Origin: Escherichia coli
Lineage (GTDB): Bacteria > Pseudomonadota > Gammaproteobacteria > Enterobacterales > Enterobacteriaceae
Assembly: GCF_030013595.1 (NCBI RefSeq)
Contig: NZ_CP122768.1
Length of the DNA: 64,000 nt
Reading direction: 5' to 3' (one strand)
Part shown: positions 32,901 through 34,495 of the stretch, piece by piece
Position numbering within the stretch: the first letter of the stretch is position 1
How the letters are laid out: each line of letters begins with the position of its first letter
Notes under the pieces: model-generated
What the model was told of the DNA's origin: nothing
Seen by the model: only the letters and a program-made list of their open reading frames with translations
The model's database searches: none
Program-made: the position numbers and the translations under genes

Positions 32901-34495
32901 ACAGCATTAGCACAAAACTGTCTTTTGTGGATAACAGCTGGCCCGTTGAACAGCAGAAAAATGTCATGCTCGGCGGTGGCGATAACGCGCTGATGTTGCC
33001 CGAGCAGGCGAGCAATATCCGGCTACAAAGTAGTGAAACGCCGCAGGAGATTTTCCGTAACAATCTTGATGCGTTAGTCGATGAACCGTGGGGTGGCGTG
33101 ATCAACACCGGTAGCCGTCTGATCCCGCTCAGTCTCGCCTGGCGTTCGCTTGCCGATCATCAAAGTGCCGCCGCTAACGACATTCGTCAGATGATTCAGG
33201 ATAACCGTCTGCGGCTGATGCAACTGGCGGGGCCCGGAGCGCGCTTTACCTGGTGGGGTGAAGATGGCAATGGTGACGCCTTCCTTACGGCATGGGCATG
33301 GTACGCCGACTGGCAGGCCAGCCAGGCGCTCGGCGTAACGCAGCAACCGGATTACTGGCAACATATGCTCGACAGTTATGCCGAGCAGGCAGATAACATG
33401 CCGTTATTGCATCGCGCGCTGGTGCTGGCGTGGGCACAGGAGATGAATCTGCCGTGCAAAACGTTGTTGAAAGGGTTGGATGAAGCTATCGCCCGGCGCG
33501 GAACTAAAACTGAAGATTTCTCTGAGGAAGACACCCGCGATATCAATGACAGCCTGATCCTCGATACACCGGAATCTCCACTAGCAGATGCGGTGGCAAA
33601 CGTCTTAACCATGACGTTGCTGAAAAAAGCGCAGTTGAAGTCCACGGTGATGCCACAGGTTCAGCAATATGCGTGGGATAAAGCGGCAAACAGCAATCAG
33701 CCGCTGGCGCACACGGTTGTGCTGCTCAATAGCGGGGGCGACGCTACCCAGGCGGCTGCTATTTTAAGTGGTTTGACCGCTGAGCAATCTACTATTGAGC
33801 GCGCGCTGGCCATGAACTGGCTGGCGAAATATATGGCGACAATGCCTCCAGTTGTGTTGCCTGCGCCTGCGGGCGCATGGGCCAAACATAAGTTAACTGG
33901 AGGGGGCGAATACTGGCGTTGGGTTGGTCAGGGCGTGCCGGACATTCTCTCTTTTGGTGACGAATTATCGCCGCAAAATGTGCAGGTCCGCTGGCGTGAA
34001 CCGGCAAAAACGGCTCAACAAAGTAACATTCCGGTGACCGTTGAACGCCAGTTGTATCGGCTTATCCCCGGTGAAGAAGAGATGAGCTTTACTCTGCAGC
34101 CGGTGACCAGCAATGAGATTGACAGCGATGCGCTGTATCTCGATGAAATCACGCTTACCAGCGAGCAGGATGCAGTTCTGCGCTATGGTCAGGTGGAAGT
34201 ACCGCTCCCGCCGGGAGCCGATGTTGAGCGCACAACATGGGGCATTTCGGTCAATAAACCCAACGCCGCGAAACAGCAGGGGCAATTGCTGGAAAAAGCG
34301 CGAAATGAAATGGGCGAACTGGCCTATATGGTGCCGGTGAAAGAACTGACGGGAACGGTCACTTTCCGCCATTTGCTGCGCTTCTCGCAAAAAGGGCAAT
34401 TCGTTCTGCCTCCTGCTCGTTATGTGCGTTCCTATGCACCTGCACAGCAAAGTGTTGCGGCAGGGAGCGAATGGACCGGGATGCAGGTGAAATAA
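29891..34495 (+). CDS. yfaS: alpha-2-macroglobulin-like protein (YfaS type), no thioester motif found
   Basis: Open frame 29876..34495; ATG at 29891 preceded by GGAAGGA; 1534 aa; signal-like segment [18 protein letters not shown]; no C-x-E-Q anywhere in the translation. Confidence 0.8.

Follow-up and report, generated by a model that had tools for sequence, protein, structure and literature searches.

Does a macroglobulin that carries no thioester still trap its target, and if so, by what means? The question is raised by a long open reading frame in the window, by which we mean the whole 64,000-nucleotide stretch of Escherichia coli DNA that was analysed. The frame (29876..34495, plus strand) comprises 1539 codons and, read from Met6, its second methionine (position 29891), encodes a protein of 1534 aa. 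The initial annotation had reported that this translation lacks the Cys-x-Glu-Gln motif, and a regular-expression scan of the protein likewise returned no in-frame C-x-E-Q. At a Cys frequency of 0.13%, 0.007 occurrences would be expected by chance; the absence is informative solely in the light of homologues, in which the motif occupies a fixed position.

The gene was 100% identical to one annotated as 'alpha-2-macroglobulin family protein' in E. coli HCP5S3_I2, and a yfaS match was present in 5383 of the 5426 complete E. coli genomes searched. It lies in an operon with the order yfaA-yfaT-yfaS-yfaQ-yfaP, flanked by gyrA and atoB, in which the 3′ end of yfaT overlaps yfaS by 67 nt. The genes, with their gene-order counterparts in the Pseudomonas mag operon, are as follows.

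27649..29337, plus strand: yfaA (DUF2138), counterpart of magB, from the RefSeq annotation of a near-identical strain and NCBIfam NF008500
29334..29957, plus strand: yfaT (DUF1175), counterpart of magC
29891..34495, plus strand: yfaS, Type II (MagD-like) bacterial alpha-2-macroglobulin, 1534 aa plus stop, from the open reading frame and a database match
34496..36145, plus strand: yfaQ (DUF2300), counterpart of magE
36150..36926, plus strand: yfaP, counterpart of magF

A counterpart of yfaA is also kept upstream of the macroglobulin gene in other genera. The same genome encodes a second macroglobulin, YfhM, whose gene adjoins pbpC. With its conserved operon of DUF2138, DUF1175, DUF2300 and YfaP-family genes, yfaS represents Escherichia among the operon-encoded bacterial alpha-2-macroglobulins of Type II (MagD-like).

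Pfam searches recovered MG, bait-region and A2M domains in the canonical order of the alpha-2-macroglobulin/C3 superfamily. The features of the protein were located as follows.

29891..30004, plus strand: predicted signal peptide, aa 1-38, followed by DD and containing Cys25, inferred from sequence
30920..31210, plus strand: MG2 domain, aa 344-440 (Pfam PF01835, E = 1e-18)
31871..32308, plus strand: bait-region domain A2M_BRD, aa 661-806 (Pfam PF07703, E = 3.7e-16)
32501..32749, plus strand: A2M family domain, aa 871-953 (Pfam PF00207, E = 1.6e-12)
33041..33832, plus strand: thioester-domain-like all-helical domain, aa ~1051-1314 (AlphaFold2 model, mean pLDDT 85)
34115..34441, plus strand: bacterial MG10 domain, aa 1409-1517 (Pfam PF17973, E = 6.5e-6)

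No Pfam match to the thioester-domain (TED) family was found in YfaS, and no NCBIfam model matched the protein. The helical domain was recognized from an AlphaFold2 model of aa 901-1534, built on a 26-sequence alignment (pLDDT 85.3, pTM 0.83), in which two beta-sandwich domains are followed by an all-helical domain (model residues 151-414), and a further beta domain forms the C-terminus. A helical TED fold preceding the C-terminal MG domain, as in the superfamily, was thus confidently predicted. When the model was compared with the PDB using Foldseek, the best match was the MG7-to-C-terminus portion of ECAM (4ziu, E = 1.4e-21); other top matches were Salmonella A2M (4u48, 4u4j), native ECAM (5a42) and complement C5. 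The fit was closer to native conformers (TM 0.58) than to protease-activated ECAM (TM 0.32-0.33).

At the N-terminus, the sequence 'MDTRR.Q.Q..RRLS' is common to YfaS and Pseudomonas, and the signal peptides of homologues end in A-x-A directly before DD..PSGY. The residues I-A-A-C (aa 22-25) of YfaS fit the lipobox pattern, which was absent at this position from every other aligned family representative. A lipobox reading is less likely than a signal-peptidase I cut after A-N-A, with the A-x-A|DD arrangement following. The RefSeq gene model of a near-identical strain starts at Val31 (position 29981) and omits the signal peptide; if that start were right, export of YfaS would fail.

The position equivalent to the thioester was established from several independent alignments. 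A BLASTP comparison of YfaS with YfhM of the same strain was weak and collinear, and paired YfaS from residue 1065 with YfhM YPYGCLEQTASGLFP, in which the motif is C1187-L-E-Q. The same register was obtained when 41 full-length cluster representatives were aligned with YfaS and YfhM using MAFFT: the consensus DYPYGCVEQTASRLIPL and YfhM AYPYGCLEQTASGLFPS fell on the degenerate YfaS site. A separate alignment (A1) combined YfaS with 39 of these representatives; in it, Glu and Gln were at least 90% conserved at the columns where YfaS has I and N. These assignments define the following features.

33083..33127, plus strand: degenerate thioester segment, aa 1065-1079, aligned with family YPYGCVEQTASRLIP and YfhM YPYGCLEQTASGLFP
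33095..33106, plus strand: G1069-V1070-I1071-N1072, equivalent of Cys-x-Glu-Gln, from the alignments

A profile of the family was also searched against solved structures. It matched ECAM and Salmonella A2M at E = 1e-31 to 1e-27, as well as structures of TEP1, A2ML1, C5 and CD109. In these alignments 'LieyPyGcveqTaSrLiP' was paired with 'LKAYPYGCLEQTASGLFP', and over a shorter segment 'yPyGcveqTaSrLiP' fell on 'YPYGCLEQTASGLFP'. Used alone as a phmmer query against the PDB, YfaS gave only weak, MG2-level matches to C5 and CD109 and missed ECAM. In the AlphaFold2 model, G-V-I-N (model residues 169-172) lies where helix 170-186 of the all-helical domain begins. Pairwise BLASTP, family alignment, profile search and predicted structure agree, and hence the site is G1069-V-I-N1072. 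Alignment to thioester-containing macroglobulins, which the initial annotation had named as a check, thus places G-V-I-N at the C-x-E-Q position and reveals no genuine C-x-E-Q elsewhere; YfaS does not belong to the thioester-containing functional subset, in which C-x-E-Q starts the TED helix. Four residues upstream, a Tyr that is invariant in the sampled Cys-bearing relatives is replaced by Glu. We presume that this Tyr may match the 'lock' tyrosine of Salmonella A2M. The title of PDB entry 4u4j includes "mutant Y1175G".

To place this degenerate site among its relatives, an exhaustive phmmer search with YfaS aa 901-1534 was run against 1.84 billion cluster representatives, and returned 233 relatives; a word-indexed search for homologues had yielded little beyond fragments from E. 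coli and E. albertii. C-[VIAT]-E-Q was found at the aligned position in 30 of 41 full-length representatives. Absence of the thioester motif, given as a property of the class (PMC5764988), holds for YfaS but not for the class overall, as C-x-E-Q was present in 56 of the 71 representatives covering the site. Loss of the thioester is a minority state within the yfa/mag operon class.

Genomic context was surveyed by a one-genome-per-species scan, which yielded 69 loci; these were checked using PbpC and the products of the five E. coli operon genes as tblastn queries. One of the four scan patterns was G[CG][VAI]EQ, which biases the loci towards motif-like sequences, and the frequencies above therefore rest on the exhaustive search. 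Operon order was conserved in the scanned loci, and PbpC was never adjacent in any related locus. The sequences at the site were as follows.

Escherichia coli / E. albertii: EPWGGVIN / EPWGGVVN
About 35 Pseudomonas species: YPYGGVEQ (rarely ..EH or ..EE)
Ralstonia, Paraburkholderia, Bordetella, Massilia, Janthinobacterium, Pseudoduganella, Rhodocyclaceae, Desulfobulbus, Desulfatirhabdium, Contendobacter and an Oligoflexia MAG: YP[YWF]GC[VAT]EQ

Among loci with the yfaA/T/S/Q/P order, those of Ralstonia, Paraburkholderia, Massilia, Janthinobacterium, Desulfobulbus and the Oligoflexia MAG read YPYGC[VAT]EQ, and those of Escherichia EPWGG[VI][IV]N. C-x-E-Q was kept in all sampled beta- and delta-proteobacterial orthologues. 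In Pseudomonas the Cys alone is gone; Escherichia also lacks the Glu, the Gln and the conserved Tyr. Cys and Gly are separated by a single-base change. Ninety-five columns were conserved to 94% or more in Cys-bearing relatives; E. coli departs from these at 16 and Pseudomonas at 6, the E. coli changes including Y1065E, C1069G, E1071I, Q1072N, Y1135W and Y1137W.

The loss in YfaS is derived, since C-x-E-Q is still carried by the majority of relatives that have this five- or six-gene operon. In neighbour-joining trees, the one kind of tree built, Cys-less forms were scattered among Cys-bearing neighbours. P0036, a homologue from a metagenome that shares 41-51% identity with YfaS according to the region compared, carries C-V-E-Q and is encoded directly upstream of DUF2300 and YfaP_C genes. 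Escherichia, Pseudomonas and P0036 formed a clade with 100% bootstrap support (neighbour-joining, with a long Escherichia branch), inside which P0036 grouped with Pseudomonas at 95%. This grouping implies that within the clade the Cys was lost twice or regained once. We lean towards the reading that the thioester is ancestral to the class, mostly kept and repeatedly lost (at about eight places in the neighbour-joining trees), so that the Type I/II thioester split may be artefactual, reflecting which two Type II proteins have been examined. On this reading, erosion would be most complete in Escherichia, and Pseudomonas would show a single Cys-to-Gly change.

The peptide to which the initial annotation had drawn attention lies elsewhere.

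32993..33007, plus strand: M-L-P-E-Q, aa 1035-1039, the earlier candidate, a chance look-alike and not the thioester site

L-M-L-P-E-Q is indeed encoded where it had been placed (32989..33006), except that its real span is 32990..33007, one base later. It had been singled out as the pentapeptide most similar to the motif; that it is a remnant of the motif is contradicted by the alignments: M-L-P-E-Q falls on family L-P-A-D-A and YfhM I-P-A-D-G, 34 residues upstream of the real thioester position, and the profile alignment likewise set 'klpadA' on ECAM 'AIPADG' at the column of YfaS L-P-E-Q-A. In the AlphaFold2 model the peptide (model residues 135-139) lies between two beta strands preceding the helical domain. 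Nor is it distinctive, since x-x-E-Q occurs seven times in YfaS, compared with about five E-Q dipeptides expected from composition. The mature protein had also been described as nearly Cys-free, and this was borne out, with two Cys in all: C25 within the predicted signal peptide, and C1189, the only mature cysteine, in the helical domain. C1189 as an alternative reactive Cys was rejected on alignment. We therefore regard it as barely credible that M-L-P-E-Q is a thioester vestige, or that targets are captured covalently through C1189, even with the E-Q retained in the former and the latter common to E. coli and E. albertii. The E-Q is one of seven such dipeptides and lies in the L-P-A-D-A/I-P-A-D-G column of a beta domain; C1189 aligns with a family consensus Val, is followed by K-T-L, and has no E-Q or Gln partner.

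A different objection is that yfaS is a decaying relic with no function, in which thioester loss was the first step of pseudogenisation. All active-site residues are gone from YfaS, and in K-12 MG1655 the same 4605-nt span is annotated as a yfaS pseudogene, with a premature stop at codon 1368. This in-frame stop is the only defect in K-12, with no indels relative to the window, and implies that yfaS is dispensable in the laboratory. Comparison with E. albertii (L006), however, gave a dN/dS of 0.064 for the window yfaS at dS = 0.82 over 1534 aligned codons, and of 0.099 for the TED-like region (both Nei-Gojobori). The gene is under strong purifying selection. The open reading frame is intact in the window, 5362 of the 5426 complete E. 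coli genomes carry 80% or more of the gene, and E. albertii keeps the whole operon. YfaS thus appears to be still in use, and decay is very unlikely.

How it would be used can be proposed by transfer from MagD, the orthologue (about 54% identical) from which all of the mechanism that follows for YfaS is inferred. MagD lacks both cysteines and is insensitive to methylamine; elastase treatment changes its shape, and the protein is associated with the inner membrane (PMC3735191). When its bait was made cleavable by TEV protease, the MagD variant trapped that protease non-covalently; MagD also binds MagA, MagB and MagF at 1:1, with MagB needed for its stability (PMC5764988). In 2025, magD was reported to shield P. 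aeruginosa from VgrG3 and Tae1, two T6SS effectors that target peptidoglycan, by a mechanism that was called unclear (PMC12663445). We judge it probable that YfaS, a thioester-less macroglobulin with its scaffold kept under selection, acts as a periplasmic, complex-bound, non-covalent trap. The macroglobulin domains, bait region, MG10 and predicted TED-fold helical domain have been kept and the reactive site erased. By homology with MagD, YfaS would be exported to the periplasm and join a complex with the products of the neighbouring genes; cleavage of the bait would then leave the target conformationally entrapped with no covalent bond. YfaS would probably serve to protect the envelope against incoming proteases or peptidoglycan-degrading effectors. 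The non-covalent reading is supported by the loss of all three reactive-site residues, as compared with YfhM C-L-E-Q and family C-V-E-Q. It had been anticipated that any capture would be non-covalent or structural, and the G-V-I-N site, the partnerless C1189 and the homology to MagD all favour that view.

It is also possible, though we think it unlikely, that YfaS traps no protease and is a scaffold, a structural or binding part of an envelope-protection complex that, for example, sequesters peptidoglycan hydrolases or senses envelope damage. The protection by MagD against VgrG3 and Tae1, whose mechanism its authors left unclear (PMC12663445), would suit such a role, as would a faint SpoIID/LytB-like match in YfaQ and the loss of more pocket residues in YfaS than in Pseudomonas. 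A pure scaffold, however, would account poorly for the bait-region domain, which is kept with a significant Pfam match, for the trapping of protease by MagD in vitro after bait cleavage, or for a predicted YfaS fold that matches native, trap-competent conformers. Within the preferred non-covalent trap, two features may set YfaS apart from MagD: E. coli has no magA paralogue, so the Yfa complex may differ from the Mag complex, and YfaS is more eroded around the site than the Pseudomonas proteins, so its function may have drifted further.

Part of this picture is already known, namely the missing thioester of YfaS and non-covalent trapping by the operon class (MagD). Two classes of bacterial macroglobulin, with the operon class lacking CxEQ, were stated in PMC3328433, and the operon class was likewise described as thioester-less in PMC3735191 and PMC5764988; all three cite Budd et al. 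2004. Papers from 2012 on call the class often or always thioester-less, and those from 2012 to 2018 credit E. coli with one macroglobulin with CxEQ and one of the class often or always without it; later papers call Type II thioester-less without qualification (PMC5764988, PMC12663445). The initial annotation was accordingly right in substance, and its interpretation was right but established; the peptide it had singled out is irrelevant. What is added here is the true degenerate site, G-V-I-N at nt 33095..33106, as the place to mutate for restoration, and the finding of strong selection on a protein without a thioester. Within the operon class thioester loss is the exception, which bears on how far results from MagD can be generalized to Type II macroglobulins; this minority status is less visible in the literature consulted than the missing motif itself. 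If the thioester is indeed ancestral and repeatedly lost, the class would offer natural matched pairs, covalent and non-covalent, inside one conserved complex, and would suggest that the complex rather than the thioester is the core of the mechanism.

Among known systems, the closest is MagD of Pseudomonas aeruginosa (PA4489), a Type II protein encoded in the magABCDEF operon. YfaS is 52-55% identical over its full length to the sampled Pseudomonas MagD orthologues and shares their neighbourhood of DUF2138, DUF1175, macroglobulin, DUF2300 and YfaP-like genes, so that YfaA, YfaT, YfaQ and YfaP correspond to MagB, MagC, MagE and MagF by gene order and similarity. Both proteins lack the thioester Cys and keep the bait-region domain, and each carries a signal peptide and no conserved lipobox. 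They differ at the site, where the Pseudomonas orthologues read Y-P-Y-G-G-V-E-Q and YfaS reads E-P-W-G-G-V-I-N, and in gene content: the sampled Pseudomonas loci have six genes and Escherichia five, the extra gene, at the place of magA ahead of the yfaA counterpart, encoding a second YfaP paralogue. MagD has been characterized biochemically, whereas YfaS is known here from sequence and a model.

The Type I proteins YfhM (ECAM) and Salmonella A2M share with YfaS the superfamily, the domain order and the MG7-to-end fold (Foldseek E = 1e-21), and YfaS and YfhM are alignable around the active site. YfhM captures proteases covalently (PMC3735191, PMC5764988). It has a lipobox Cys (Cys18), C1187-L-E-Q and pbpC as neighbour; YfaS has neither the motif nor that neighbour and probably no lipobox, and is not of Type I. 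The two proteins are highly diverged, to the extent that the phmmer search of solved structures with YfaS missed ECAM. Complement C5, which was among the best structural and raw sequence matches, resembles YfaS in having kept the fold and lost the thioester. It differs in being a two-chain plasma protein of eukaryotes that does not trap proteases. The Cys-bearing members of the YfaS family, for example those from Janthinobacterium, Massilia, Paraburkholderia and Ralstonia, are encoded in the same operon and are 40-52% identical to YfaS, collinear over the full length; with YPYGC[VAT]EQ at the site, these proteins presumably form a thioester.

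In the RefSeq model of a near-identical strain, the macroglobulin gene starts at GTG 29981, corresponding to Val31, and with this start the entire YfaS signal peptide is lost. K-12, together with an alignment of homologues, favours the Met at 29891 as the yfaS start. With initiation at 29891, yfaS overlaps the 3′ end of yfaT by 67 nt (29891..29957). A similar overlap of 64 nt was found by tblastn between the YfaT and YfaS matches in Pseudomonas loci, and Pseudomonas also has the YfaS N-terminal pattern MDT[QR]R.Q.Q...

Many YfaS-family members (homologues P0038, P0057, P0080 and P0084; genome loci L007 and L023) carry an n-region resembling RQSQFYRRLS or RQPQFRRRFS. 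The twin arginine in this n-region is reminiscent of a Tat signal. In E. coli YfaS (aa 4-18, window 29900..29945) the corresponding stretch (12 protein letters not shown) contains no RR pair. The predicted E. coli signal peptide also includes the following feature:

Window 29954..29965 (aa 22-25): lipobox-like tetrapeptide I-A-A-C

The Cys of this tetrapeptide is also present in E. albertii, and a lipobox pattern was found at this position in no other aligned YfaS-family representative. From its sequence, the YfaS N-terminus could be read either as that of a lipoprotein or as a signal peptide cleaved after A-N-A at aa 38.

Two further features concern the integrity and coding content of yfaS:

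NC_000913.3 2329798..2334402 (locus L075:3799-8403): K-12 MG1655 yfaS "pseudogene"
Window 33965..34450, minus strand: 161-aa ORF with a TTG start, antisense and wholly within yfaS

Compared with the intact window allele, K-12 yfaS has 149 substitutions and no indels; a single in-frame nonsense codon at position 1368 (window equivalent about nt 33992..33994) is its sole defect. This stop would remove the last 167 residues of YfaS, including the C-terminal MG10 domain. The antisense ORF is probably spurious.

Elsewhere in the window, two minus-strand features were placed by annotation transfer, that of eco being from the reference strain:

Window ~4450..5660, minus strand: ISNCY-family transposase gene beside a truncated hypothetical gene
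Window ~59245..59733, minus strand: eco (ecotin)

These two genes are flanked by the rhamnonate gene yfaU on one side and glpC on the other, and BLAST self-hits revealed short internal repeats around 4488..4944. A 1.3-kb IS3-family insertion between atoS and rcsC in the near-identical reference strain NZ_CM149870.1 is absent from the corresponding site in the window (~44306..44310); the window strain is therefore different from, though closely related to, the reference. Ecotin is another periplasmic serine-protease inhibitor, and eco lies about 25 kb from yfaS.

The number and position of YfaP paralogues varied among operons. Several betaproteobacterial and Desulfobulbus loci (L036, L038 and L042; ~14200..16200) have two in tandem after yfaQ. 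In Pseudomonas, one YfaP paralogue occupies the magA position, upstream of the yfaA counterpart. In Escherichia, YfaP is single-copy.
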